64,000 nucleotides of DNA from an uncultured Methanomicrobiaceae archaeon. Its GTDB lineage: Archaea; Halobacteriota; Methanomicrobia; Methanomicrobiales; Methanoculleaceae. Both the position numbers and the translations under genes were made by a program. Shown here one piece after another: positions 1-13,363 of this stretch. A model generated the notes under the pieces. The model was not told where the DNA came from and made no database searches. It saw nothing but the letters and a program-made list of their open reading frames with translations. The DNA lies in assembly GCA_963826525.1 (NCBI GenBank), contig CAWGXH010000005.1, forward strand, positions 96,001 to 160,000. Reading direction: 5' to 3'. How positions within the stretch are numbered: the first letter of the stretch is position 1; every line of letters starts with the position of its first letter.

Positions 1-1450
1 GATGACCGCGCGATAGTCGACGGACGGGTCGACCTCGTCGACGCGGATCGGGTAGATTGCCACATCCGCGTCTGCTCCGGGGGCGAGGTGCCCTTTCCCG
101 ATATCGACGATGCCGAGCGCCTTTGCCTGGGCGGCACGGGTCATCACCGCGATCTCGTGCCAGTCGAGCTCCCGGTCGATCGCCGGCAGCGGCACCCGGT
201 GTTCCGTATCGGGATGCACCGTCGCGAGTTCCTCCTCCCGGTATTTTTTGCTCATCAACAGTGCTATGATCTCCGGGTAGCGGACGAACGGAGCGCCGTT
301 CGGGTTGTCCGTCGTCAGGAGGCACCGCCACGGATCGTTCACGAGGAGCGCGAGTTCGAGACCGATCGCCCACATCACCGAGTTGACGAGGTTTTTGCGG
401 CGGTAGATGACCGGGATGATCCCCGAGCCCGTCTCGAGCTCCACGTCGTGGTTGCTCCACTTGTCGTGGTGGAGGCGGTAGAGGTTGAACTCCATCGGCC
501 CGTCGGCGGTCATGGTCGTGGTCTTGCCGAACATCACCTGCCCCATATCGATGGTGATCTGGGGGCGCATGTTCACCATGTTCGCTATCGGCTCGCTCTT
601 CGAGCAGAAATCGCTCCACCCCGACCCCCCGTAGGAGTGGTACTGGACGTGCGTCGCATACAGCGTCTGGCGTTTCTTGTTCAGGTCGGGGATGAGCCCG
701 AACGTCCCCATCGTGCAGGTGTAGTTGCCGGGTTTCCCGAGGTTGTTGCAGTGGAGATGCACCGAGTGCGGAAGGTGGAGCAGCTCGTTCGCCTCCACGA
801 TCGTTCTGATGATCTCCGCCGGGGTGACCTCGAAGTAGGGGACGGGGTCGCGGATACAGCTCACGTTCTTCCCCCAGCCCCACGCCTCGGTGCCCCCGGG
901 GTTCGTGAAGCTTGACGGCAAACCCCTTGACGGCGGAGAGCACCCACGCGATGACGGCGGCGACCCGCTTTGTATCCCCGTCTCGTATCGCCTCCAGCAC
1001 CGACCAGTTCCCGTCGAAGAGGGCGTTTGCCATGGTGTCCTGCAGGGGTGTGTAGCCGAACTCCTCGTGGGTGTGGCGTGCTTCGAGGGGTGCCATCGCC
1101 CCTTCGAGCAGGGTGGTGTAGCCCATCGTACTGTAGCGGTAGCTGTTCCCGTAGGTGGTCGGCACGCTGTAGCCGGAGGTGGCGTGCATATGCCCGCGTC
1201 GCGGCGTCCGTCCCGCACGCATATCCTCGGGGCTCATGTAGCGCCCGAAGTTCACCTTGGTACCGCAGATATGCGTATGCGAGTCGATCCCTCCCGGCAG
1301 CGTTAGGCCTCGGCGGGCGTCGATGACCTCCGCCGCATCGCCGACCCCTTCGACGATCTTCCCGTCGCGAATGGCGATATCCATCACTTCGCCGTTGATG
1401 CCGTTCAACGGATCGATGACGAAGGCGTTTTTGATCAGAAGCTCGCTCAT
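1..1450 (-). CDS. fwdA: Formylmethanofuran dehydrogenase subunit A (amidohydrolase), 3' end beyond window
   Basis: Manual translation from ATG at 1450: MSELLIKNAFVIDPLNGINGEVMDIAIRDGKIVE...LPGGIDSHTHICGTKVNFGRYMSPED (DxHxH motif). Start overlaps the fwdB stop. Absent from the ORF track, probably because no stop falls inside the window. Confidence 0.93.
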   Translation of the reverse strand, partial: MSELLIKNAFVIDPLNGINGEVMDIAIRDGKIVEGVGDAAEVIDARRGLTLPGGIDSHTHICGTKVNFGRYMSPEDMRAGRTPRRGHMHATSGYSVPTTYGNSYRYSTMGYTTLLEGAMAPLEARHTHEEFGYTPLQDTMANALFDGNWSVLEAIRDGDTKRVAAVIAWVLSAVKGFAVKLHEPRGHRGVGLGEERELYPRPRPLLRGHPGGDHQNDRGGERAAPPSALGASPLQQPRETRQLHLHDGDVRAHPRPEQETPDAVCDARPVPLLRGVGVERFLLEERADSEHGEHAPPDHHRYGAGDVRQDHDHDRRRADGVQPLPPPPRQVEQPRRGARDGLGDHPGHLPPQKPRQLGDVGDRSRTRAPRERSVAVPPDDGQPERRSVRPLPGDHSTVDEQKIPGGGTRDGASRYGTPGAAAGDRPGARLARDRGDDPCRPGKGARHRRYRERAPRPRSRRGCGNLPDPRRRGRPVRRLSRGH

Positions 1451-2736
1451 GGCTGCCGCACCTCCTGTATACGTGCGTATATCCTCCCGAGGACTTCTTC
1501 GTCGCTCGGGTAATCGGTGGTGAGCACTTTGCGCGTGCGGATAGGGACGCCGTCCATCCGGTATGCCGTGCCTTCGGCATCGATCCCGGTCACCGCGACC
1601 GGTATCTGCACATCGCAGAACGCGGTGGTTGCATTGGCATATGGATCGATCTGCACCACCGGGATATCGGCAAGGTGTTTGATGCACGCGCGGGGAAAAT
1701 GGGCTCCGGGATCGCTCGCGACGATCAGGCAGGCGTCGCACTCCTTCCGTGCGAGAATATCCACCGCGGTCGTCTCGCCTGGATTGTAGAACGCGATCCC
1801 GCGGGAGAAATCGATCCCGAACGGATACCCCGTCATCCACGTATTCACTTCGTTCGACCCGTAGACATTGTAGTGTCCGCGCATCGCCGAGATGGTAAAC
1901 TTCGTGTACCGGGAGAGTTCGTCGACGAGTTCGATGGCGTTCCGGATATTCTTGTACTTCCCCCTGGTCATGGTGAGCCCGAGCCCGAAGTAGACCGCTC
2001 CGAACTTCGCCTTTTTACAGAGATCGACGATGCGGAAGAGCTGTTCGCGGGGGACGCCTCCGACGGTGCGGGGGAGCGATTCGCCCTTGCCGCGGGCGAT
2101 CGCCCGGAGCGCCGAGAGCACCGCGTAGTCGGCACCGGGCTCTATCTGCACGAACTCGTCGGCGAGGTTCGTCGTCTCGGTCTTCCGAACATCGACGACG
2201 ATCACCTTTCGGTCGCGGAAGGCGTTCTCGAGGAAGAATCCGTCGGCATAGCGGGTGTAGCGGGAGAGGTGCCGGGGATGGGCGTCGATCGGGTTGCACC
2301 CCCAGTAGATGAGGAGATCCGCCCGGTTCTTCACCTGGCCGAGGGTGCAGCCCGGGTGGCCGACCTCCTGGATGGCCAGGATCGACGGCCCGTGGCAGAC
2401 GGACGAGGTGTTGTCGATGACGCCCCGGAGGAGTTCGGCCATATGGACGCCGACACACTGCGCCTCGCCGTGGGTGCCGCTCCACCCGTAGAGGAGCGGC
2501 CGGTCGGCCTCGAGCAGCATATCGACGGCGTACTCCACGGCCTCGTCGTATCCGATATCCTTCCAGGTATCGCCGTCGCGCCGGATAGGTCCTTTCAGTC
2601 GGTGGTCGCCGAGGAACTTGTGGTTCCCGAGCGTGCACGCGTTATCGACGGCGACGATCTTGCCGTCCTCGACCGTCACCTCGATATCGTCGCAGAGGCA
2701 GCCGCAGAAGGGGCAGACGGCATCTTTAATGATCAT
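1447..2736 (-). CDS. fwdB: Formylmethanofuran dehydrogenase subunit B (Mo/W-pterin, Cys ligand)
   Basis: CPFCGCLCDD Fe-S motif; SVCHGPS active-site Cys; CTLGQVKNRAD; GTAYRMDGVP. Confidence 0.96.
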   Translation of the reverse strand: MIIKDAVCPFCGCLCDDIEVTVEDGKIVAVDNACTLGNHKFLGDHRLKGPIRRDGDTWKDIGYDEAVEYAVDMLLEADRPLLYGWSGTHGEAQCVGVHMAELLRGVIDNTSSVCHGPSILAIQEVGHPGCTLGQVKNRADLLIYWGCNPIDAHPRHLSRYTRYADGFFLENAFRDRKVIVVDVRKTETTNLADEFVQIEPGADYAVLSALRAIARGKGESLPRTVGGVPREQLFRIVDLCKKAKFGAVYFGLGLTMTRGKYKNIRNAIELVDELSRYTKFTISAMRGHYNVYGSNEVNTWMTGYPFGIDFSRGIAFYNPGETTAVDILARKECDACLIVASDPGAHFPRACIKHLADIPVVQIDPYANATTAFCDVQIPVAVTGIDAEGTAYRMDGVPIRTRKVLTTDYPSDEEVLGRIYARIQEVRQP

Positions 2737-3115
2737 AGGCCAGCCCTCCGAGTTCTGCCATCAGTTCGTAGACGGTCTTGCGGGCTTCGTCGGTCGGTTC
2801 GATCGTCACTTCGGTCGACTTGAAGTCGGGCATCCCCGTCGAGTGGGTCTCTCCGTCGATGATGTGGTTCGCATACGGCCCGTAGGGCACGAAGATCGTC
2901 CCCGGTTTGAGGTGCTCGTCGGATACGACCGTGAGGACGACCTCGCCGAAGGGGCTCGTCACCCGCACGTTCTCCCGGTCGTCGACGCCGAGATCCATCA
3001 TGTCGAAGAGGTGCATGAAGCAGGTGCCGGTCTCGTCGTTGTAGGCGACCGACCGCTTGTTCTCCACGTTCACGCCCTGGTTCACCGTCCGCCCCGTGTT
3101 CATCAGAAACTTCAT
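2726..3115 (-). CDS. fwdD: Formylmethanofuran dehydrogenase subunit D
   Basis: MKFLMNTGRTVNQG...FVPYGPYAN...THSTGMPDFK. Likely true ATG at 3115 within track ORF 2726..3670. Confidence 0.93.
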   Translation of the reverse strand: MKFLMNTGRTVNQGVNVENKRSVAYNDETGTCFMHLFDMMDLGVDDRENVRVTSPFGEVVLTVVSDEHLKPGTIFVPYGPYANHIIDGETHSTGMPDFKSTEVTIEPTDEARKTVYELMAELGGLAYDH

Positions 3116-3717
3116 GCCGCTTCCTCCTGGATGCCTTCGACCATCCGGGCGACGCGGATGGCCTTGTTCGGGCAGTTGTTCTCGCAGGTCTTGCATCCGA
3201 CGCACTTCTCCTCGTGGATAACCCGGAGGCGCCCGCCCTCGACCTTCATGATAACCTCGTCGTTTGCGGAGGTGCCGGTGGATGCGAGCTGCGGGTCCTC
3301 GCGTTTGTTGACCGGGCAGGAGACGGCGCAGTTCCCGCACCGCATGCAGAGGACGTCGTCGACGGTGAGGCGGTACCACGACCGAAAGAGCGTCTTCTCC
3401 TGCTGCTGCCGGTCGAGCACCCGCCCGCTCCAGAGAACGTCTTCGGGGCATGCCTCGACGCAGAGACCGCAGCGGATGCAGTGTCCGCGGTGGATCATGG
3501 GTTTCCAGTGGTCCTGGTGGTAGAGGACCTCGATCGCTCCTGGGGCCGGACAGATCATCATGCAGCTCAAGCAGGCCGTGCACTCGTGTCCGGTCGGCAG
3601 CGGGTAGTCCTTGAAGTAGGGGGGCGAGACCAGCGGAGCGGTCTTTGCGAAGAAGAACTTTCGGAGCCACTCCATCCGCAGGAATTCGCGGAAGTACCAG
3701 GTGATTGACAGACCCAT
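3112..3717 (-). CDS. 4x[4Fe-4S] polyferredoxin with NuoI/EchF-like N-half and FwdG-like C-half
   Basis: Four CxxCxxCxxxCP motifs. C-half CMRCGNCAVSCPVN...EVIMKVEGG...CKTCENNCPNKAIRV resembles FwdG. Confidence 0.85.
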   Translation of the reverse strand: MGLSITWYFREFLRMEWLRKFFFAKTAPLVSPPYFKDYPLPTGHECTACLSCMMICPAPGAIEVLYHQDHWKPMIHRGHCIRCGLCVEACPEDVLWSGRVLDRQQQEKTLFRSWYRLTVDDVLCMRCGNCAVSCPVNKREDPQLASTGTSANDEVIMKVEGGRLRVIHEEKCVGCKTCENNCPNKAIRVARMVEGIQEEAA

Positions 3718-3731
3718 ATCCTTTGTCTCTC

Positions 3732-4823
3732 CTACCGCTCGTTGCAGGCGATGCAGGGATCGCTGCTGATGAACGTCGACGTCACGTCGGCGATCGAGGT
3801 TGCACCGGTGATCATGTGGTGGGCGCAGGCCTCGATATTCATGATGGACGGTGTCCTGATGGCGATATCGAGGATCCGGCCGTACTCATCTGATTTGATC
3901 GAGTAGGTCAGCTCGCCGCGGGGTGCTTCGCCCTGGTAGACGATCTCGCCGGCACTGCAGACGCCGCCGCCGCGGATAGACCCGCCCTCCGGCAGCCGGT
4001 CGACACACTGCCGGATGAGATCGATGCTCTGGAAGACCTCCTGGAACCGGACCATGATCCTGGCGAAGTTGTCGCCCTCCGTCCTGTAGATCGGTTCAAA
4101 GTCGAGCTGCCGGTAGGTCGGATGGCAGAGCCGGCGATCGCACTCCGGCACACCGCTCGCTTTTGCCGTCGGGCCGACGGCGTGCGCCTCGATCGCCTTT
4201 TCCCGGGTCAGGATGCCGATCCCCTTGCTCCGAAGAGCGATCAGGGGGCCGGTCTCGAACATCCCGACATAGCGCTGCATATCCGCCTCGACTTTTGCAA
4301 GGTCCGCGAGAAGTGCGGCTTTGTCCTCTTCCGACAGGTCGAACCGCACGCCGCCCGGGATCATGTAGGCGGTGTTGATCCTTGATCCGGTGATCCGCTC
4401 GAGGTTGTCGAGAACGGTCTCACGGACGTTCAACAGGTACATCCCGAGGGTCTCGTGCTCGATCGTGTAGCAGTAGGAGAAGTTCGCGAGGATGTGGCTT
4501 GCTATCCGGTCGAGTTCGTTGACGGCGACCCGGAGGTATGCGGCTCTCGGCGGCACTTCGATCCCGCTGATCCCTTCCATCGCCTCGATGAAGACCATGT
4601 TGTGGACGACGGAGCAGATGCCGCAGACGCGCTCTGCGAGGAACATCACCTCCTGCCAGGGGCGTCCCCGCATGATCCGCTCGATCCCTTTCTTCATGTA
4701 TCCGAGTTCAACCTCGGTCCGGAGCACGCGCTCGCCGCTCGTCTCGCACTTCAGGCGGACGGGCTCTTTCCAGCAGGGGTGCACGGGGCCGAGGGGAATG
4801 GATACGTCGACAGTCTTCTTCAT
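3732..4823 (-). CDS. ehaO: Energy-converting (group 4) [NiFe]-hydrogenase large subunit
   Basis: GPVHP; L1 motif ERVCGIC; EAPRGE; L2 motif DPCIACNER at the C-terminus with no cleavable extension. Confidence 0.92.
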   Translation of the reverse strand: MKKTVDVSIPLGPVHPCWKEPVRLKCETSGERVLRTEVELGYMKKGIERIMRGRPWQEVMFLAERVCGICSVVHNMVFIEAMEGISGIEVPPRAAYLRVAVNELDRIASHILANFSYCYTIEHETLGMYLLNVRETVLDNLERITGSRINTAYMIPGGVRFDLSEEDKAALLADLAKVEADMQRYVGMFETGPLIALRSKGIGILTREKAIEAHAVGPTAKASGVPECDRRLCHPTYRQLDFEPIYRTEGDNFARIMVRFQEVFQSIDLIRQCVDRLPEGGSIRGGGVCSAGEIVYQGEAPRGELTYSIKSDEYGRILDIAIRTPSIMNIEACAHHMITGATSIADVTSTFISSDPCIACNER

Positions 4824-5278
4824 TTCTGTTTCTTCTCCTCGTAGTCGTTAAACAGCGTCGGCGCAAGCGCGAGGATTGCGCTTAAGATCTCCGTCGGCCG
4901 GGGCGGGCACCCCGGCACTTGGGCTGCGATGGGGATGTACTTGGCCACCGGCGGTTCGATGTACGAGTGCCACCGGTTGAAGACGCAGCCTGAGATTGGG
5001 CAGTTGCCGACGGCTATCGCCACCTTCGGCTCCGGGATCTTCTCCCAGAGTTCCGGGAGCTTATCCACCCACTGTGGTGTCATGGACCCGATGACGAGCA
5101 GGACATCCGCCTCCCGCGGGTTATTGTGAACGTAAATGCCGTACTGTTCGATATCGTACCGGGGTGCGAGGCATGCAAGCACCTCAATGTCACAGCCGTT
5201 GCAGGACCCTACGTCGACGTAGGCGACGTGAATCGAGCGCGAACGGACGGTGTTTTTGATCTTCTGAAGAATGCTCAT
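4820..5278 (-). CDS. ehaN: Energy-converting hydrogenase small subunit
   Basis: GSCNGCDIE, NPREADVLLV, GNCPISG and GCPPRP motifs; ATG at 5278. Confidence 0.92.
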   Translation of the reverse strand: MSILQKIKNTVRSRSIHVAYVDVGSCNGCDIEVLACLAPRYDIEQYGIYVHNNPREADVLLVIGSMTPQWVDKLPELWEKIPEPKVAIAVGNCPISGCVFNRWHSYIEPPVAKYIPIAAQVPGCPPRPTEILSAILALAPTLFNDYEEKKQK

Positions 5279-5662
5279 CGCCTGATCGCCTCCCGTATCT
5301 GTGCCTTCCCTTCGTCGATCGCCGGTAACTCCGGTGTTCCTCCGGCGATCGCCGCTTTGACATCGCTGCAGATCGTCTCCATCGTCCCGGGTTCGACCAG
5401 GGGGATGAAGCGGGTGAAGAGCTCGCACCCGAGTCTTTCGGCGATCGGATCGGTCTTGTCGGCATAGCAGGAGCCCCATCTCGTAGCGGGCCTGAAGATT
5501 CTCGAGGAGCGACATGTCGAAATCCCGGATCAGGATCATCCGGAGTTTCTGGTCGCTTATATCAAGGCGCCGGGCGATCTGCTTGACGGCAAGGTCGTGC
5601 CGGGTGCTCGTCAGGATATTGTACTTCATCTGCCGGAGATCCTTTTCGTACAGGTACTTCAT
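5275..5662 (-). CDS. ehaM: Eha soluble subunit (EhaM/DUF1959-like), frameshifted near 5465
   Basis: MKYLYEKDLRQMKYNIL...; continues in another frame as DPIAERLGCELFTRFIPLV...KAQIREAIRR*. Lies just upstream of the small subunit. Confidence 0.65.
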
Positions 5663-5904
5663 AGGAGGCCGCCTCCGATCAATGCGTAGACTGCAAAACA
5701 GAGGACGCCTGCCCAGAGCAGGGTCATCTCGTAGCGTTTGAGGGCAAGGCTCTCGCGCTGCCACGTGAGCGCGGCGGCAGCAGCGAGCAGAATGATGCCG
5801 GCCGCCGCCTGCGCGAGTACGCTCTCGTTCATGGCCACCTGGACCAGAATCACTGCAGTATAAAATACGGCCCCGAGCGTGATAAGCGTGCGCACCACAT
5901 TCAT
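5659..5904 (-). CDS. Small membrane subunit of the Eha cluster
   Basis: 81 aa with about three hydrophobic segments; overlaps both neighbours by 4 nt. Confidence 0.7.
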   Translation of the reverse strand: MNVVRTLITLGAVFYTAVILVQVAMNESVLAQAAAGIILLAAAAALTWQRESLALKRYEMTLLWAGVLCFAVYALIGGGLL

Positions 5905-6746
5905 CCTGTAATCACCCCGAGAACAATGATATAGACGACGATCGCCCCGGTCACCAGGCTCTGCACCGTGACGGTATCGTACGGGGAGAGCATGGGCGAG
6001 ACCGCGCAGACGAACGAGAGCGATATGAGGACGAGGAGCATCACGAGCAGGGCTACGAGGAGGGGCAGCTGCCCGATGAAGATGAGCACGAAGGCGTAGA
6101 GGAGCACGTAGGTCTTGATCGCATACGCAACCTCGAGGCCTGCCCGCCAGACGCCGAAGTGTTCGGTCATGTTGCCGCTCACGATCTCTTTGGCCTCGAT
6201 GATGGCAAAGGGGCTGTAGTGGAGCTTCGAGAGGATCACGAGGTACATCGCGACCGCTGCCGGGAAGGCGGCGATGAGCAGCGGGCCATGCGCCTGCTGG
6301 TAGGCGATGATGTCCGAGAGCATCAGCGAGTGCGTGAAGAAGTATATGACGCCGATCGTTGCAAGGAGCGGCAGTTCCGACGCCGCGGAGATGACCGATC
6401 GTATCGCCCCGAACTTTCCGTACGGCGAGCCGGACGAGAGCCCGAGTCCGTGCTCCACGATCTTGTGGATCATGTAGACGCCGAAGAGCAGCAGGATGCT
6501 TCCGCCGGAGAGCAGGATGAAGAGCGAAGCGCTCCAGATACCGATCGCCACGAGCACGACCGCGACGAAGAGCGTCCGGCTTGCTGTCCGGGGTATCCAG
6601 GTCTCCTTGAACGAGAACTTCAGCGTATGGAGAATCTCCTGCCAGATCGGCGGGCCGGGGCGGCCCTGCACCCGTGCTATGACTTTCCGGTGAATGCCGT
6701 GAAAGAGCAGCCCGACGAACAGTGCGAAGATCAGGTATTCTATCAT
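5901..6746 (-). CDS. ehaJ: Eha membrane subunit, NuoH/complex I subunit 1 family
   Basis: RKVIARVQGRPGPP, SGSPYGKFGAIR and PFAIIEAKEIVSG motifs. Confidence 0.9.
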   Translation of the reverse strand: MIEYLIFALFVGLLFHGIHRKVIARVQGRPGPPIWQEILHTLKFSFKETWIPRTASRTLFVAVVLVAIGIWSASLFILLSGGSILLLFGVYMIHKIVEHGLGLSSGSPYGKFGAIRSVISAASELPLLATIGVIYFFTHSLMLSDIIAYQQAHGPLLIAAFPAAVAMYLVILSKLHYSPFAIIEAKEIVSGNMTEHFGVWRAGLEVAYAIKTYVLLYAFVLIFIGQLPLLVALLVMLLVLISLSFVCAVSPMLSPYDTVTVQSLVTGAIVVYIIVLGVITG

Positions 6747-6747
6747 G

Positions 6748-6954
6748 TCAGTATCCTATGAACGGGATGTCCGCAACTCCATCCGATGCGCTCCACCACA
6801 GTGCCAGGAATACGACGAAGAGTGGAAACGCGAAGATGAGCAGTATCTCCGCGACCCAGAGGTCGAGGAAGCCTGCCGCCGCCGCGACCGCCGCGGCCAG
6901 GCAGACGATTCCGGTGATCGCTGCAATACTCAGTGAACGCTGTTTTGGCATCAT
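6748..6954 (-). CDS. Small two-TM Eha subunit (EhaI-like)
   Basis: 68 aa hydrophobic protein ending DIPFIGY; operon position. Confidence 0.7.
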   Translation of the reverse strand: MMPKQRSLSIAAITGIVCLAAAVAAAAGFLDLWVAEILLIFAFPLFVVFLALWWSASDGVADIPFIGY

Positions 6955-6958
6955 CTCA

Positions 6959-7636
6959 TCACATCGATATGACTATCTCAACCACCCGCAGGAAGACGAG
7001 CAGGGAACTGACGTGGACCATCAGGATGTAGGGAGCCCCCTGGGCACGGGTGATCTCCGCTTTTGCCACGTAGAACGGTGCCATTCCTTCGCCCATCACC
7101 CCGAGGACGAGGAAGATCTTTGCAATGAGCGGCACTGCGATTGCGGGCAGGTAGAGTTCCCACAGGCTCAGCGTGCCGGTCGTTGCAAGGACGATCGCCG
7201 CTCCCCCGAAGAGCGGCACCGTGGCGAGCATCGCGACGATGCCGTACTGGAAGGCGGCGTTCAGGACGTGTTTGTTCCGGTACGCCGCGACGATGCCGAT
7301 GTTGGTGATGCCCACCATCGAGACGAAGAGAGTGTAGTTGAAGACGTCGCCGCTCACAACGGCACCGAGCGTGGCAAGGCCGCAGGCGATTGCCATGAAC
7401 CGCTGGAACCGGAGCAGTTTCGGGTCGATCTCCTTCGTGTAGTAGGCGTCGCCCCCAAACGCGATATCGACCATCCGTTCCGGCCTGCTGACGATCGCAA
7501 GGATGGTGAAGATGAGGGCGAAGGCAAAGAGCGCGGCGGTGTAGACGCTGAAGTAGTCGACGATATCCCCGAACTCCAGGACGAAGAGCTCGCTGCCGCC
7601 GATGTTCGTTACCGGGAGATTAAACATTCGCACCAC
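6959..7636 (-). CDS. ehaH: Eha membrane subunit (EhaH-like, antiporter-related)
   Basis: Polytopic; GDVFNYTLF, LNAAFQYG, TGTLSL, GMAPFYVAKAE. Confidence 0.75.
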   Translation of the reverse strand: MVRMFNLPVTNIGGSELFVLEFGDIVDYFSVYTAALFAFALIFTILAIVSRPERMVDIAFGGDAYYTKEIDPKLLRFQRFMAIACGLATLGAVVSGDVFNYTLFVSMVGITNIGIVAAYRNKHVLNAAFQYGIVAMLATVPLFGGAAIVLATTGTLSLWELYLPAIAVPLIAKIFLVLGVMGEGMAPFYVAKAEITRAQGAPYILMVHVSSLLVFLRVVEIVISM

Positions 7637-8225
7637 CCCGCATCGTCCCGATGAGGGACATCTTTGCCATCACTTTTACCAGGATCGCTCCACCGGCGAT
7701 CATCACGCCGAAGAACCAGTACACCGGCAGGAACATGAAGATGAAGAATGCCCCTATCCAGAAGACCCAGGCATAGCCGCTGACGGTCTCGATGAGGTCG
7801 AACCGCTCGTCGTGCCCCTTGCAGAGGAAGTAGAAGATAGCGCCCACGGCGGCTATCGCCCCGCCGGTGAACCCGGAGAGGACGATGCCGTACGCGACCA
7901 GGATCAGCGCCATTAGCCCTGGTGCGCTCTCCATCACCTCGATCCGGAGCGGCGGGGTGGCTGGTGGCGTCCTCAGGTCTTCTTTGGCGAGGTAGACCTC
8001 CGAGACGGCTAAGAGTTCGGATATCCCGACGACGAGGCCAGGGAGGATGAGCGCCTCGGCAAGGTCGGTGGCGACGAAGGCGATGAGCGCGAGCGCCAGG
8101 ATCTCGGCAAGATCCGTCAGGAGTATCCGGTGCAGGTCGTCCCGCTCCCGTATGAGGGCGTAGAACCCGATGACGATCCCGAGGAAGACGACGAGCAGGC
8201 CGAGGCTGTAGGTCGGATCCATCAA
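7620..8225 (-). CDS. ehaG: Eha membrane subunit (EhaG-like)
   Basis: Polytopic; TDLAEALILPGLVVG, LSGFTGGA. Confidence 0.72.
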   Translation of the reverse strand: MMDPTYSLGLLVVFLGIVIGFYALIRERDDLHRILLTDLAEILALALIAFVATDLAEALILPGLVVGISELLAVSEVYLAKEDLRTPPATPPLRIEVMESAPGLMALILVAYGIVLSGFTGGAIAAVGAIFYFLCKGHDERFDLIETVSGYAWVFWIGAFFIFMFLPVYWFFGVMIAGGAILVKVMAKMSLIGTMRGGANV

Positions 8226-8686
8226 TCGGCCCTCCTGAAGAGGTATGCGGCGATGGCGAACGCTATGAAGAGGATGCTCGTCTCCGCGACCGTATCGAGC
8301 CCCCGGGTGTTGTAGAGGATCTCGTCGATGATGCCGCCCGGGTGCGAGACGATCGTCGTGCCGAGATGGAACGTCTGCTCTGCCAGGAACGCTGAGAACG
8401 GCGTCAGGTACGCCGTGACGTAGCCGAGATACGGGGAGTTCTCCGGGTACTGTGCTACGACATCCGTCTTACCGAACGGCTCCCCGCCCCGGTCGTAGGG
8501 ATTGAGGCTGCTTGCCGGATCGATTGTCTTCGGATACAACTGGTTTTCGTCGTACCCGACGAACGGCAGCGTAACAATGCCGATGACGACGGCCGCCACG
8601 ACCAGCAGCGCATAGAGGGCCGAGAGATTCTCGTAGTTCGAGACCGTCCGGGATATCCTGCTGATGATAAGACCTGGTCGTTTCAT
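8222..8686 (-). CDS. ehaF: Eha subunit (EhaF-like)
   Basis: ATG at 8686; PYDRGGEP, AQYPE, GYVTAYLTP, GTTIVSHPGGIIDEILYNTRGLDTVAE. Confidence 0.78.
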   Translation of the reverse strand: MKRPGLIISRISRTVSNYENLSALYALLVVAAVVIGIVTLPFVGYDENQLYPKTIDPASSLNPYDRGGEPFGKTDVVAQYPENSPYLGYVTAYLTPFSAFLAEQTFHLGTTIVSHPGGIIDEILYNTRGLDTVAETSILFIAFAIAAYLFRRAD

Positions 8687-8919
8687 GGCTCGCCCCTCCG
8701 TTCGATGACCCGTACCAGGACGAAGGTCGAGATCGCCGTCACCCCGACGAAGGTGAGCAGCGCCAGCGTCTCGTTGAACGAGAGCATGATCAGGAGCAGC
8801 CCGAATGCCGGGATCTCGAGATTGATCAATCGACCGACGTAGGTCTTCTCCCGCGGGAACCCCACGGCGACGATCCCGATGAGGAGGATCGCACAGCCGA
8901 GGAGGAACTCGGGGCTCAT
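8683..8919 (-). CDS. ehaE: Eha small membrane subunit (EhaE-like)
   Basis: RLINLEIPAFG...LALLTF; 78 aa, hydrophobic. Confidence 0.72.
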   Translation of the reverse strand: MSPEFLLGCAILLIGIVAVGFPREKTYVGRLINLEIPAFGLLLIMLSFNETLALLTFVGVTAISTFVLVRVIERRGEP

Positions 8920-9146
8920 GCCGCACTCCTCCTGCAGACGAGCAGGATGATGATCGTCGTCACCGGGATAATGAGCCCGACGGCGATGGCGACGTCCAGG
9001 TACCCGCGGTCGACGAGGAACGGTAGAACGCCCCCGGCGATGATCCCGACGGAGATCAGTTTGTTGAAGGAGTCGGTCTGCAGAAGAGCGCTCACCGCCC
9101 CGATGAGGGCGATGGCTCCGTAGAGAACCGCGAGCAGGTCATTCAT
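8916..9146 (-). CDS. ehaD: Eha small membrane subunit (EhaD-like)
   Basis: ATG at 9146; DSFNKLI...YLDVAIA...PVTTII. Confidence 0.7.
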   Translation of the reverse strand: MNDLLAVLYGAIALIGAVSALLQTDSFNKLISVGIIAGGVLPFLVDRGYLDVAIAVGLIIPVTTIIILLVCRRSAA

Positions 9147-9393
9147 CCTTCGGTACCCCTCCCGCATAGGTGCTCGCGATTGCGTTCGATTCAAGAGTCG
9201 AGCCCACGAAGTACGCCGCGGCCGCGACGAGCGAGAGCGGGTGATCGAGCAGCAGGACGAGCGATCCCGCTATGGCGAAGTTCATGGCGTTGAGGTAGGG
9301 AAGTTTCCTGCCCGTCTTCCCTTCAAAGACCGCCCGGAGAGCGGCAAAGACCGCAATGGCGCCGAGGAGCGGAAGCGCGATCACGATCGCCAC
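9139..9393 (-). CDS. ehaC: Eha small membrane subunit (EhaC-like)
   Basis: Probable GTG at 9393; KLPYLNAMNFAIA...AYFVGSTLESNAIA. Confidence 0.7.
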   Translation of the reverse strand: MAIVIALPLLGAIAVFAALRAVFEGKTGRKLPYLNAMNFAIAGSLVLLLDHPLSLVAAAAYFVGSTLESNAIASTYAGGVPKDE

Positions 9394-9866
9394 TCCCAGA
9401 GCCGTCCGAGGAGGGCGCTCGCGTGAACGTGCGATATCCCCTGGATCGCGAGAATCGCGACGACCGTTCCGGCGATGAAGTCGGAGGCGGCAAACCCTGC
9501 AAGGGTAAATCCGTACACCACGAACGTGGCGATGACAGCTCCCGTTGTCCCGGCATATCCCGGGTCGTGGCAGATGCGGTTTCCGATGTAGACGAGCACC
9601 GCTGCTGCAAGACCTCCCGGAATCCCGGCCACGTAGACGCCGCACGCGGCGAGCAGGGTTCCCGCGGAGGCATCGGGGGAGCAGACGATATTCCCCATCA
9701 TGGTGCCGCCGTGCAGGGAACCGCCGCCGTCCGTGATGTCTTTGGCTATAGCGGATGCTCCGCTGACGCCTCCTGCCTCCGGTAACCGGAAGAGAATGTC
9801 GATTGTTACGAACAGAGCCCAGCTGATGATCGCCGCTGCCAGGATGTGAATGAGTTCATTCAGCAT
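9381..9866 (-). CDS. ehaB: Eha membrane subunit (EhaB-like), first gene of operon
   Basis: LPEAGGVSGA, GNIVCSPDASAGTLLA, GNRICHDPGYAGT. Confidence 0.72.
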   Translation of the reverse strand: MLNELIHILAAAIISWALFVTIDILFRLPEAGGVSGASAIAKDITDGGGSLHGGTMMGNIVCSPDASAGTLLAACGVYVAGIPGGLAAAVLVYIGNRICHDPGYAGTTGAVIATFVVYGFTLAGFAASDFIAGTVVAILAIQGISHVHASALLGRLWEWRS

Positions 9867-10170
9867 CGGTACTCCAACTATGGAAAAATACGTGCGGTCT
9901 ATTCGATAAAGGTTTTCATGTTACCATCTTTCCCGTTTCGTTCCGGGAGATCGGGTTTTCTGCCGCCACTACGGATGCCCCGGATTTCTACGACGTATGG
10001 TATAATATATATAATTAATACTGCATATCAGTAACCGTCATCGGATTCTCACGTACCGCCGCAGGGCGGCCACGGGCTTATAGGAATCCCGGGCAGGAGC
10101 GGCGGGGTGCGCCGGGTGGAATTCCGAGTGCATTATGTACTCTTTAGATCCAATCCTTGAAGAGAGCGCC

Positions 10171-11229
10171 ATGCCGTCCAGTACCCCGCGCATCGATCCC
10201 GTCACGCTCGCGCTTCTTTCCGGCATTCTCATTGCTGCCGCCGCTCTCTTCTGGCCGCTCCTCGACGTGGTCGTCCTTGCCCTCTCGGTTGCCGTGGTGA
10301 TCTATCCCGTTCACCGCTATCTCTCCCGCTTTCTGCCCGGAGCGGCGGCGGCCGGGGTGACGGTGGCGGCCGTCGTCGTCGTCCTTCTGGCATCCGGAGC
10401 CTTCGTCGCTCTCGTGCTCGCCCAGAATGCGGAGTACCTTACCGGGATCGTCGGGATCATCGCCGACTGGATCGCCGCACCGACGCTCGGCGAGACAGGG
10501 GCGGTGCTCCCGATACCACAGGGCGAAATAGCGGAACTGTTTGCCGGGCAGGCCGCGAGCCTGGAGAGGTCCCTCACCGGTATGGCAGAGCTCGCCCCGA
10601 TCATGGTCGTCAAGATCATCGTCTTCTTTCTCACGCTGTACGTTGCCCTGCATAAGGGCGCCGAGGCCGTTGCCGGGCTCGTGGCTCACCTGCCCGCGAC
10701 GTTCGGGGATGCAATCGGCCGGATGTCGAAGGTCACCGTCGACACCCTCTACGCCATCTACGTGGTGCACGTGGCGACGTCGGTCATCACCTTCTTTCTT
10801 GCACTCCCCTTCTTCTACGCCCTCGGCTACGGGCACGTCCTCTTCTACTCGGTCATGGCCGGAGCCTTCCAGCTCGTGCCGGTCATCGGCCCATCCCTGA
10901 TCATGCTCTTCCTCGGTATCTTCGCTCTCTCGACCGGGGACGTCAGGGGAGCGATCTTCGTGGCGCTGGTCGGCTATCCGATCGTCTGTGCCCTGCCCGA
11001 CATCTACTTCCGTCCGCTGATGATGGGGCGGCGAGCCAGCATTCATCCGGTGATCATGTGGATAGGGTTCTTCGGCGGGCTTGCCGTCATGGGCATCATC
11101 GGATTCGTCCTCGGGCCGCTCTTCCTCGCGCTGCTCGTCGCAGGATACGCCATCCTGATCCGCGACCGTAAATCCGCCGCTGCTGCCCCTGTTTTGCAGG
11201 AATCGCCGGAGCTTCGGAGCAAGGTATAA
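10171..11229 (+). CDS. AI-2E (UPF0118) family transporter
   Basis: Polytopic; LVPVIGP, DIYFRP and HPVIMWIGFFGG...GFVLGP motifs. Confidence 0.88.
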   Translation: MPSSTPRIDPVTLALLSGILIAAAALFWPLLDVVVLALSVAVVIYPVHRYLSRFLPGAAAAGVTVAAVVVVLLASGAFVALVLAQNAEYLTGIVGIIADWIAAPTLGETGAVLPIPQGEIAELFAGQAASLERSLTGMAELAPIMVVKIIVFFLTLYVALHKGAEAVAGLVAHLPATFGDAIGRMSKVTVDTLYAIYVVHVATSVITFFLALPFFYALGYGHVLFYSVMAGAFQLVPVIGPSLIMLFLGIFALSTGDVRGAIFVALVGYPIVCALPDIYFRPLMMGRRASIHPVIMWIGFFGGLAVMGIIGFVLGPLFLALLVAGYAILIRDRKSAAAAPVLQESPELRSKV

Positions 11230-11257
11230 ATCCGGCACTCTTCCACAGTATAGGGAA

Positions 11258-11342
11258 GCGAGGGTTGCCGAGCCTGGTCAAAGGCGCAGGGCTTAGGACC
11301 CTGTCACGAAGGTGTTCGAGCGTTCGAATCGCTCCCCTCGCA
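11258..11342 (+). tRNA. tRNA-Leu (anticodon UAG), no intron, CCA not encoded
   Basis: Acceptor stem GCGAGGG/CCCTCGC plus A; anticodon arm CAGGG-CT-TAG-GA-CCCTG; long variable arm; T arm GAGCG-TTCGAAT-CGCTC; TATAAA about 30 nt upstream. Confidence 0.97.
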
Positions 11343-11983
11343 TAGCACTCTTCTGGGTTATAGTTAGTAGTGAAAAATGCCACCCCCTCATACTTGACAT
11401 CACACTCTTCAAAAACAGCTCAACTCAGATCAACACTGCTCTTGTGTTCAATGTGAGCGCCCTTTTCAAAGATTACAACATCGTCCGGAAATTACCCGGC
11501 CGCATATCGCCGTTATGCCTTGATGATCCTGCCGCTTTTAAGGCATCAGGCCGATCTGCTCCGGTTAATTCCCATGCCGCGATTCGTCCTCTGAAGGTTT
11601 CGTTAAAATCGGAAAATGATAGTCCGGCATCATCAACTCAGTATTCTCATGGGAGCCAATATGTGTTATCTCCGGGGATCAGGCCGCCCTGAGGCCTTGT
11701 TGTAAATTGTGTACGGCGCCGATCTCCAGTGCGATCGATGAATCCATTCTCATAAGGTGTTCGCCGGACTCACAGAAAGAGCCCGAACACGATTTCTACA
11801 GAGCGTATCCTCTATTGTCTTATAATGAACCATGCAGTTCAAAATCCAACCAATGAAACGGGCTATACCATGCTCCTCAAGTTGTCCGGCTTTTACCGTC
11901 AGGCTTGTCCCGTTACGATTGATGGTCTGCACAAACTTCGTAACCGTTATCGTTCCTGTTACGGTATCTTTCCATGACTCATC

Positions 11984-13363
11984 ATGAAACCCGAGAAAGC
12001 CTTCATACTCACGATCACCCTCCTTATCACAATTTTCCTTGCCATCTCTGCAGGCTGCATCGGGCCCGGTCAGCAATCGCAGGCTTCGCCTGTCGTCACT
12101 GCAGCTGCCACGCCTGCCGGTGACCGCCCCTCGCTCGTGTTTACGGATGAGGAATTTGCTTTCGAGCTCCGGCGAACACTCGGCGCCGCGTATTCGGGAG
12201 AGGCCGATATCGGCGAGTGCCTTGCCACTGCGTCCCGGATCAAAGAGGGAGACTTTGAAAGCTGGTATGGCGAATGGAACAAGACTGCGGACACCTTCAG
12301 GACGGCGGGTGACGAGAGCCTCGCGGCCGGGCACAGGGTTACCGCAAGGGAAGCATACTACCGGGCCGCAACGTACTACCGCACAGCCGAGTTCTTCCTG
12401 CATGGCAATCCCACCGATCCCCGCATCGTGGAGACCTGGGAAAAGAGCCGGGATTCGTTCCGCGACGCACTCTCGCTCGATGTCGTCCCGTACCAGATCG
12501 TCGCCATCCCGTACGAGAATACGACGCTGCCGGGTTACTTCTATATAGTCGACGACTCCGACGAACAGCGGCCGCTGCTCATCGTCCAGACCGGCTTTGA
12601 CGGCTGCCAGGAGGAACTCCATCCGTATGCGATGGAAGGGATCAAACGCGGATATAACGTCCTGACGTTCGAGGGGCCGGGCCAGGGCGAAGTGATACGG
12701 ATCCGGCATATCCCGTTTCGTCCCGATTGGGAGAATGTGATCGGCCCTGTCGTGGACTATGCGGTGAGCCGGCCCGACGTCGACGAAGACCGGATTGCAC
12801 TCTGGGGAATCTCGCTCGGGGGCTACCTCGCCCCCCGCGGTGCCGCATATGAGCCACGGATCACGGCGCTGGTCGCGGACGCAGGCACCTACGACGTCGG
12901 ACAGACACTCCTGCGGAGCCTGCAGGAAGGCGGGGGAGCGGCCGCTAACCTGACGGAAGAAGAGCTGCAGGAATGGCTGCAGACGGATCCGGTTGAGTTC
13001 AACAATGCTCTCCGCGATGCCATGGCACACGATACCGGCACCCGCTGGCTGAACGAGAACGGGATGTTCGTCTTCAATGTCAGCTCGCCGGCACAGTTCT
13101 GGGCGAAGTGGATGGATTTTTCACTCGTCGGAATTGCCGAAAAGATACGGTGCCCCACGCTGGTCGGTGCCGGTGCGGCCGATCACTTCGACCCGGGCGG
13201 GGTGCAGGCACAGGCACTCTACGACCACCTCGCCTGCGAACGGGACCTTATGGTATTCTCCGACGAGTACGGTGCCGGGTCGCACTGCCAGCTCGGGGCG
13301 TTCGCGCAGTCGTTTGCCGCCAAGTTCGACTGGGTCGACGATACGATGGGAATGAGCGGATAA
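11984..13363 (+). CDS. Putative lipoprotein alpha/beta-fold hydrolase (FrsA / dihydropseudooxynicotine hydrolase-like)
   Basis: Signal peptide ending ISAGC; TGFDG, EGPGQG, nucleophile elbow GISLGG, C-terminal HCQ. Confidence 0.85.
   Translation: MKPEKAFILTITLLITIFLAISAGCIGPGQQSQASPVVTAAATPAGDRPSLVFTDEEFAFELRRTLGAAYSGEADIGECLATASRIKEGDFESWYGEWNKTADTFRTAGDESLAAGHRVTAREAYYRAATYYRTAEFFLHGNPTDPRIVETWEKSRDSFRDALSLDVVPYQIVAIPYENTTLPGYFYIVDDSDEQRPLLIVQTGFDGCQEELHPYAMEGIKRGYNVLTFEGPGQGEVIRIRHIPFRPDWENVIGPVVDYAVSRPDVDEDRIALWGISLGGYLAPRGAAYEPRITALVADAGTYDVGQTLLRSLQEGGGAAANLTEEELQEWLQTDPVEFNNALRDAMAHDTGTRWLNENGMFVFNVSSPAQFWAKWMDFSLVGIAEKIRCPTLVGAGAADHFDPGGVQAQALYDHLACERDLMVFSDEYGAGSHCQLGAFAQSFAAKFDWVDDTMGMSG

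Follow-up and report, generated by a model that had tools for sequence, protein, structure and literature searches.

A conserved fusion of an Eha hydrogenase subunit with a FwdG module in Methanomicrobiales suggests a physical link between Eha and formylmethanofuran dehydrogenase

In the solved formylmethanofuran dehydrogenases (Fwd or Fmd), FwdG is a two-cluster adaptor seated on FwdB. The present analysis concerns a gene of Eha, an energy-converting hydrogenase, in which such a module forms the C-terminal half of the encoded subunit; it lies in a 64,000-nucleotide stretch from an uncultured Methanomicrobiaceae archaeon (GenBank assembly GCA_963826525.1, contig CAWGXH010000005.1, positions 96,001 to 160,000, forward strand), hereafter the window. 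FwdG of the FwdABCDFG complex of Methanothermobacter wolfeii (5T5I) resembles this half in its two [4Fe-4S] motifs, its long hairpin, 35-38% identity and its place in a fwd operon, but it is a free protein of 82 amino acids (aa), and, unlike the 5T5I system, the window operon holds no gene for the polyferredoxin FwdF. According to the accessible text of two sources, FwdG is the constant component and its partner is exchangeable, some complexes having FwdF and another the F420 reductase FwdI (PMC11493965; PMC11656701). The FwdABCDGI complex of Ca. Ethanoperedens (8RJA; PMC11493965, available part) illustrates such a swap of the partner docked by FwdG, with FwdI in place of FwdF and six clusters in FwdBGI. 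The exchanged module is there a soluble FrhB-like F420 reductase bound non-covalently, whereas here it would be a membrane hydrogenase attached covalently.

The N-terminal half of the fusion protein has its counterparts in MbhN (6CFW), MbsN (6U8Y), HycF (7Z0S) and NuoI, to which it aligns from the region preceding the clusters through both motifs. The genes of these proteins also stand beside those of a large and a small subunit, and the fusion adds a C-terminal FwdG module to this arrangement. In class I Eha (Methanothermobacter), EhaP and EhaQ follow ehaO in the same position as the fusion gene, and many fusion homologues bear the JGI label 'energy-converting hydrogenase A subunit P'. EhaP and EhaQ are set apart by their description, with 6 and 10 [4Fe-4S] clusters, respectively (PMC3087415), versus four in the fusion protein, the second half of which is FwdG. 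Source labels of the fusion protein vary between EhaP, FwdG and formate hydrogenlyase subunit 6/NuoI. The Fdh-Hdr-Fmd supercomplex of Methanospirillum hungatei is, according to its structure study, reportedly driven by bifurcation and routed through FmdF. This assembly (7BKB), from the same order, also delivers low-potential electrons to Fmd directly through FmdG and free of ferredoxin; it differs in being soluble, in its flavin-based mechanism and FmdF route and in having a separate fmdG-fmdF pair. A separate pair of this type is also present in the window genome. In formate hydrogenlyase FHL-1 of Escherichia coli, the connector chain is HycB-HycF-HycG. Its logic, a Mo/W-pterin C1 enzyme wired by a [4Fe-4S] chain to a membrane-bound group-4 [NiFe] hydrogenase (7Z0S), is the same as that considered here, but the direction would be from H2 to CO2, the product formyl-methanofuran and the connector one fused chain instead of HycB plus HycF, in a complex that is hypothetical in the present case.

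The adjacency of eha and fwd genes is not new. It has been in print since 2009 for three Methanomicrobiales, along with Eha-supplied reduced ferredoxin for Fmd (PMC2686161, accessible text). Later work, in its available part, treats the gene as a separate ferredoxin (PMC5563889), and the accessible section of a genome paper gives eha as Mhun_2094-2106 and prints the fwd set as 'Mhun_210612' (PMC4704411); read as 2106-12, this would put one gene in both lists. According to a 2026 paper, it is not obvious where electrons from Eha could enter the class II Hdr-Fmd supercomplex (PMC13580544). A 2024 review recognizes just two electron modules, FwdF/Hdr and an F420 reductase, and regards H2 by itself as incompatible with the enzyme (PMC11656701). 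For the Eha lineages, 'use of different ferredoxins' is mentioned in a main text that defers the details to its supplement (PMC9635834), and this supplement may describe the fusion. No earlier description of the fusion or of an Eha-Fwd complex was found in the literature, with supplements (PMC9635834) and subscription reviews lying outside the coverage.

The fusion gene (3112..3717, minus strand, stop codon within these coordinates) opens with ATG, has zero internal stops and encodes 201 aa with four CxxCxxCxxxCP motifs: C46-C49-C52-C56-P57 (CTACLSCMMICP), C80-C83-C86-C90-P91 (CIRCGLCVEACP), C124-C127-C130-C134-P135 (CMRCGNCAVSCPVN) and C172-C175-C178-C182-P183 (CVGCKTCENNCP). Three segments were distinguished, all on the minus strand: an N-terminal helical segment (residues 1-35, 3613..3717), recognized by conservation in 39 sequences and by predicted helices; a NuoI/MbhN-like 2x[4Fe-4S] module with a linker helix at residues 98-107 (residues 36-108, 3394..3612), delimited by profiles and tree; and a FwdG module with two [4Fe-4S] motifs separated by a long hairpin (residues 109-201, 3115..3393), delimited by profiles and fold, in which the stretch EVIMKVEGG corresponds to residues 154-162. 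The gene represents a real and conserved fusion of the 'Rosetta-stone' type between an Eha subunit and FwdG.

Residues 109-201 (C-half) proved to be a FwdG module and not a generic ferredoxin. Searched alone against all PDB sequences, the C-half gave its best single-stretch matches with two FwdG chains, 9sfi_U of 80 aa (55.6 bits) and 5t5i_G of 82 aa (50 bits); the FwdF stretches printed in the same search did not exceed 28.3 bits each, FwdF polyferredoxins ranking high there because several stretches sum. When a profile of nine C-half sequences was used, the top short chains were 9sfi_U (78.2 bits), 5t5i_G (64), 7bkb_L (55.6) and 8rja_F (43.7), the first three annotated as FwdG and the last taken by us to be a FwdG chain. 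Against the organism's own 33,998 six-frame open reading frames (ORFs), a C-half profile built from 39 homologues scored 57.7 bits on the free fwdG preceding fwdF-hdrCBA and 25.6 on the next domain (FwdF), and none of the remaining ferredoxin modules rose above 22 bits. Alignment by hhalign with a profile of 10 fwdG sequences (six from fwd/hdr contexts and four short representatives) covered 85 gap-free columns with a score of 160 (E-value 2.3e-30), to be compared with controls of 79 (2.1e-14, with a 14-column loop gap) for the C-half and 73 (3.5e-13) for FwdG, both versus the N-terminal half.

Structural comparison pointed in the same direction. The AlphaFold2 model (mean predicted local distance difference test score, pLDDT, 79.6; C-half blocks about 91-94, residues 171-180 at 84) matched the solved FwdG 5t5i_G with Z 12.3 and a root-mean-square deviation of 2.0 Å over 78 of 80 residues, and with a Foldseek template modelling (TM) score of 0.84 normalised on 5t5i_G. 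Next came the FwdG of 7bkb (7bkb_L) with Z 9.9, followed by 8rja_F with Z 9.5, whereas no unrelated ferredoxin domain exceeded 9.4. The spacing from C124 to C172, 48 residues, is that of context-verified fwdG genes. A maximum-likelihood tree of 65 modules and 77 columns, for which 14 of the 39 fusion rows were chosen and six representatives excluded because they lacked two complete motifs, grouped the C-halves with long-loop free FwdG, though weakly (84/92). Searches of NCBIfam returned generic ferredoxin-family matches only; since this applied even to the genome's genuine FwdG, no FwdG-specific model is apparent in that collection. Whether the C-half is nearer to one sub-type of FwdG than to another was also examined, and mean identities of 36% (long-loop, class I-like) and 34% (Hdr-linked Methanomicrobiales) revealed no real preference. 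An argument from co-evolution was therefore dropped, also because one and the same FwdG sequence occurs in both 5t5i and 9sw6, which have different FwdB chains. Among the sequences collected, five proteins of 218-226 aa (P0167, P0184, P0191, P0204, P0231) carried an N-terminal FwdG-like module (residues 3-86 at most) followed by a further part, one cluster among them being source-labelled 'predicted transcriptional ...'. The cluster names of short representatives, such as '4Fe-4S ferredoxin', were uninformative.

These results bear on a different explanation, according to which the fusion protein is a short, four-cluster EhaP whose FwdG-like module only lengthens the wire to a site for soluble ferredoxin; no stable Eha-Fwd complex would then exist, and the adjacent Fwd would draw on the ferredoxin pool or on free FwdG/FwdF. 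Published models for Methanomicrobiales agree with it in so far as they assume, in their accessible text, a diffusible or operon-specific ferredoxin (PMC2686161, PMC5563889), and the class I Eha polyferredoxins with their 6 and 10 clusters are regarded either as the acceptor itself or as the proteins that reduce it (PMC3087415). The C-half, however, resembles genuine FwdG much more than it does polyferredoxin modules (57.7 versus 25.6 bits; Z 12.3), and the length of the linker is fixed, residues 92-120 showing zero indels in the 39 sequences (43-96% identity). We regard this explanation as possible but clearly the weaker one.

Residues 1-108 (N-half) were assigned, from their sequence profile and operon context, to Eha as its own NuoI/MbhN-type 2x[4Fe-4S] module. 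In a profile search of PDB, the best single-module relatives were MbsN (50.3 bits), RnfB (45.1), MbhN (43.5), HycF (37.1) and NuoI/TYKY (about 36-41), multi-domain polyferredoxins ranking above them. The alignments spanned 22-96 (MbhN), 27-95 (HycF) and 27-98 (NuoI), and those to MbhN and NuoI in PDB began at residues 3-31. The motifs start at C46 and C80, in keeping with the family spacing of about 30-35 residues, and the N-terminal extension ahead of them can likewise be aligned with the family. The best paralogue in the organism's own genome (39 bits) was of MbhN/EchF type, scoring 158.8 on NF006221 (cut-off 124). In the tree, the N-halves formed one clade (98/82) beside NuoI-type proteins, and the N-half is the sole Fe-S subunit of its kind in the eha operon, where it is encoded with the large and small subunits. 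The N-half falls under the curated cut-offs (TIGR01971, 41.6 versus 113.05; NF006221, 37 versus 124; NF009053, 30.8 versus 204). Fold did not enter this assignment, as the fold matches of the N-half are generic: residues 36-100 of the whole model hit generic ferredoxin domains with Z 8-9, and a model of the N-half alone (pLDDT 67.4, low) gave generic ferredoxin matches only, every Z below 5. Residues Y8, W17, F21, T26, L29, P32 and F35 are invariant in the 39 sequences, and helices were predicted at 3-12 and 15-23; by analogy with NuoI and MbhN, residues 1-35 are proposed to dock on the membrane/peripheral-arm interface of Eha.

An earlier note on this DNA, drawn up from the letters and their ORFs, had reported an uninterrupted 201-aa ORF with four motifs between ehaO and fwdD, and checks of frame, motifs and neighbours agreed with it. 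It had further read the C-half as FwdG-like, with a closeness no greater than to generic ferredoxins as the counter-case; profiles, hhalign and fold all placed this half nearer to FwdG. Its view of the N-half as a NuoI/EchF-type subunit was supported by sequence profile and operon position, but the fold searches were not specific for NuoI. The main inference of the note, a single chain that wires the membrane hydrogenase to FwdB, is plausible, and its interpretation as a whole is partly supported.

The first cluster motif displayed some variation. In 15 of the 39 fusion homologues, the named ones mostly labelled Methanoregula, the position of C49 (codon 3571-3573) is occupied by A, H, E, N or T; C46, C52, C56 and all cysteines of the other three motifs are invariant. 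The cluster concerned, which may be a [3Fe-4S] cluster or one with a non-Cys ligand in these variants, would presumably face the FwdG module, by analogy with NuoI.

Distribution of the fusion was evaluated among 151 sampled genomes of Methanomicrobiales, and a near full-length, stop-free match was counted from the table in 124 of them. Eight further genomes gave partial matches only, which for the seven listed fell in FwdF-sized ORFs. An EhaO orthologue (E-value at most 1e-100, at least 61% identity) was found in 123 of the 151, and comparison of coordinates by eye placed the fusion directly after ehaO in every one of these 123. The fusion match started 4-73 nt past the EhaO match in 122 cases and 268 nt past it in G079, since the EhaO match stops there at residue 279. 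Conversely, 27 of the 28 genomes lacking an EhaO orthologue also lacked the fusion, the exception being G073, in which it stands at a contig start; five fusion-less genomes held only group-4 large subunits of 33-38% identity. Among 80 named species-representative loci, covering Methanoculleus, Methanofollis, Methanoregula, Methanolinea, Methanocalculus, Methanogenium and Methanomicrobium among others, the halves were contiguous and in frame in 77, the exceptions being L171, which has a run of N, L179, a frameshifted draft, and L180 (N-half only, in a locus titled as a Methanocellales metagenome-assembled genome). A chance ORF or an assembly artefact is ruled out by these two counts, which also mean that the module departs from FwdG in one respect, not being a free-standing small subunit.

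A split gene was looked for by a word-based search for short stand-alone C-halves, which yielded seven proteins among eight candidates, none of them pointing to such a gene: five came from contigs no longer than 1.6 kb, a sixth (96 aa) from a contig of 3,985 bases, and the last was a 51-aa piece. The contiguity of both halves across sampled genomes and loci thus indicates that two separate genes, named as a counter-case in the earlier note, are absent within the order. The note had also asked for the fusion to be confirmed in finished genomes, and it is present in the complete chromosomes of Methanospirillum stamsii and M. purgamenti.

The operon context of the window ties the fusion gene to Eha on one side and to Fwd on the other, all genes being on the minus strand. 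Upstream lie the ehaN-type small subunit (4820..5278, NuoB-like, Pfam Oxidored_q6) and the ehaO-type [NiFe] large subunit (3732..4823, Pfam Complex1_49kDa and NiFeSe_Hases; group 4), which matches HycE at 1.6e-40 and is separated from the start of the fusion gene by 14 nt. Downstream follow fwdD (2726..3115; NF042908, 110.6 bits) and fwdB (1447..2736; TIGR03129, 606 bits versus a cut-off of 327.8), which overlap by 11 nt. The TGA stop of the fusion gene and the ATG of fwdD overlap in GCATGA, so that the two genes are translationally coupled. No CxxCxxCxxxC motif was found in any other ORF of window positions 1-12000. Among the sequence data sets listed for window positions 1400-5400 there was none of RNA, and those of DNA had at most 0.12 of the words in common with it. 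Both the coupling and the consistent lack of an own fwdG in Eha-type fwdDBAC sets, seen in the window as well as where such a set lies apart from eha, argue against a FwdG-like module that only serves a soluble ferredoxin.

The neighbourhood was further studied in 20 loci picked for spread over six families. The fusion was followed by fwdD-B-A(-C) in 14, once past a gap of 1.9 kb, by fwdD-B-C in one and by fwdA-C alone in two; fwdD started within 200 nt of the fusion in 64 of the 80 named loci. In G003, where no fwd gene is adjacent, an Eha-type fwdDBAC (FwdB 70% identical) was located elsewhere, again without fwdG, along with a Hdr-linked set ordered fwdG-fwdF-hdrCBA-fwdDBAC. Some gene orders were less regular: no fwdA match was detected between B and C in the fusion-fwdD-fwdB-fwdC locus of G111 (L063), and two genomes of family f6 (G136, G030; L064, L065, L099) had fusion-fwdA-fwdC, with fwdD-fwdB of G136 about 7 kb away on the opposite strand.

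The window genome itself contains three fwd sets, one Hdr-linked (with fwdG and fwdF), one Eha-linked (with the fusion) and a third fwdBAC. The third set, fwdB-fwdA-fwdC (L020, G000:C4:977000-991000), showed no fwdD match and no ferredoxin-motif ORF within 14 kb, and must borrow subunits or work differently. Three FwdB sets for only two FwdG-like modules would suit a second alternative, in which the FwdG module docks elsewhere than on the adjacent FwdBD, either on FwdF of the Fdh/Hdr-Fmd supercomplex or on another Fwd isoenzyme, and Eha feeds the bifurcating supercomplex. FwdG is stated, in the available part of a review, to touch both FwdB and FwdF in solved complexes (PMC11656701), and the 2026 study of the supercomplex does not settle the way in which electrons from Eha get into the class II complex (PMC13580544). 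The Hdr-linked set, however, owns its fwdG-fwdF, and the tight operon coupling is to the fwdDBAC that has no fwdG; docking elsewhere is therefore considered improbable.

Outside the order, homologues were searched in 301 genomes of the phylum and the loci then annotated. N-half-only genes (frames of 103-104 codons, 44-49% identity) ended the Eha operons of G175 and G259, both of one family. Free C-half homologues (86-93 aa, 40-44% identity) stood between fwdB and fwdA in G155, G210 and G369, from two other families, and are the classical fwdG. A divergent four-cluster fusion (33% identity) was present after ehaO in G347 (L084:8049-8672, plus strand), a 1.5-Mb genome. The only fwdDBAC of G347 is 28 kb away, in a 16-kb stretch of which no ferredoxin-motif ORF was found; a second, weak FwdG-like ORF (31.8 bits) lies on another contig of that genome. 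G175 also encodes, between hdrA and hdrC-hdrB-fwdDBAC, a 404-aa FrhB-like protein (L096:3487-4698, plus strand), which matches Pfam FrhB_FdhB_N and FrhB_FdhB_C and has at its C terminus a two-cluster module of FwdG-like 48-residue motif spacing. It recalls the F420-reducing Fwd complex of Ca. Ethanoperedens.

As the terminal Fe-S subunit of Eha is fused to the FwdG adaptor, here and in almost the whole order, Eha and Fwd are probably hard-wired. Given the conserved 'Rosetta-stone' fusion, the leading hypothesis is that Eha and Fwd form a physical complex that reduces CO2. In our estimate, the probability that such a complex conveys electrons from H2 to CO2 with no soluble ferredoxin involved is roughly 0.6. 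The fusion protein would be the electron-output subunit of the Methanomicrobiales Eha, born of a two-module fusion, its N-half being seated on the EhaN/EhaO peripheral arm. H2 would be oxidised at the [NiFe] site of EhaO, and electrons would pass through the EhaN cluster to the two clusters of the N-half, from there to the two clusters of the FwdG module, and on through the [4Fe-4S] cluster of FwdB to the W/Mo-pterin, where CO2 would be reduced before FwdA fixes it on methanofuran. Ion influx via the Eha membrane arm would pay for this uphill conversion of CO2 to formyl-methanofuran. The product would be a membrane-bound Eha-FwdABCD supercomplex devoid of diffusible ferredoxin, acting like a formate hydrogenlyase in reverse. 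The two-module architecture, the family of each half, the conservation of the fusion and its operon setting are shown by the data; that the C-half docks on FwdB/D, how far apart the clusters lie and that ions are coupled is inferred. The more specific proposal of a so far unpurified supercomplex in Methanomicrobiales, held together by the fused subunit and powered by an ion gradient to make formyl-methanofuran from H2 without soluble ferredoxin, seems to us to have slightly better than even chances.

Several observations weigh against a stable complex of this kind. Fwd genes are absent within 6 kb of the fusion in 3 of the 20 loci, and the fusion is thus kept where fwd is not adjacent, as also in G347, which would equally fit an EhaP that serves a soluble ferredoxin. 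The same can be said of the third fwdBAC set: lacking fwdD and fwdG, it indicates that Fwd isoenzymes can share subunits, and the Eha-linked Fwd could therefore borrow free FwdG/FwdF. Conservation specific to an interface was sought by comparing the C-half with free FwdG and none was seen, the residues shared beyond cysteines (G128, N129, P135, V136, G162, P183, A186, I187) being generic; FwdG is, moreover, a small ferredoxin fold, which the authors of PMC11493965 judged too generic as a BLAST query. For the N-half, the fold searches did not single out NuoI. G175 and G259 have an N-half-only Eha together with Fwd, and the fusion is therefore not required for Eha function. The whole AlphaFold2 model has a predicted TM score of 0.50 and a linker pLDDT of 59; its inter-domain geometry, and with it the cluster spacing across the junction, is uncertain. 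Co-purification data for Eha with Fwd were not found in the literature. Finally, fwdA of the Eha-linked operon is frameshifted in the present assembly.

This last gene (1..1444, minus strand) extends past the window edge and has one frame change between 818 and 927; FwdA of a relative aligned to it in two frames, over residues 2-227 and then 191-582. A comparable situation was met in the hdrA/mvhD region of contig C4 (L007:9957-12416), where three ORFs lie in differing frames. The assembly is 87.6% complete, and indel errors in it probably account for the frame changes in fwdA and hdrA, real pseudogenes being conceivable. The fwdC gene follows fwdA beyond the window (G000:C5:95009-95734), and the window FwdB is closest to 8rja_B (538.7 bits). 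The other eha membrane and accessory genes occupy 5279..9866 on the minus strand; besides three ORFs with no Pfam match, they comprise DUF1959, NADHdh (NuoH-like), NADHdeh_related, DUF2105, DUF2106, DUF2107 and DUF2108, families typical of Eha.

If the proposed complex exists, it would give formylmethanofuran dehydrogenase a third type of module for electron input, in addition to FwdF/Hdr and to FwdI, the F420 reductase, and would be a physical route for the anaplerotic role of Eha in class II methanogens. A chemiosmotically driven H2:CO2 reductase would likewise join the known ways of fixing CO2. The covalent Eha::FwdG connector would thereby offer a concrete answer to the question of how electrons of an energy-converting hydrogenase reach the CO2-fixing first step of methanogenesis.

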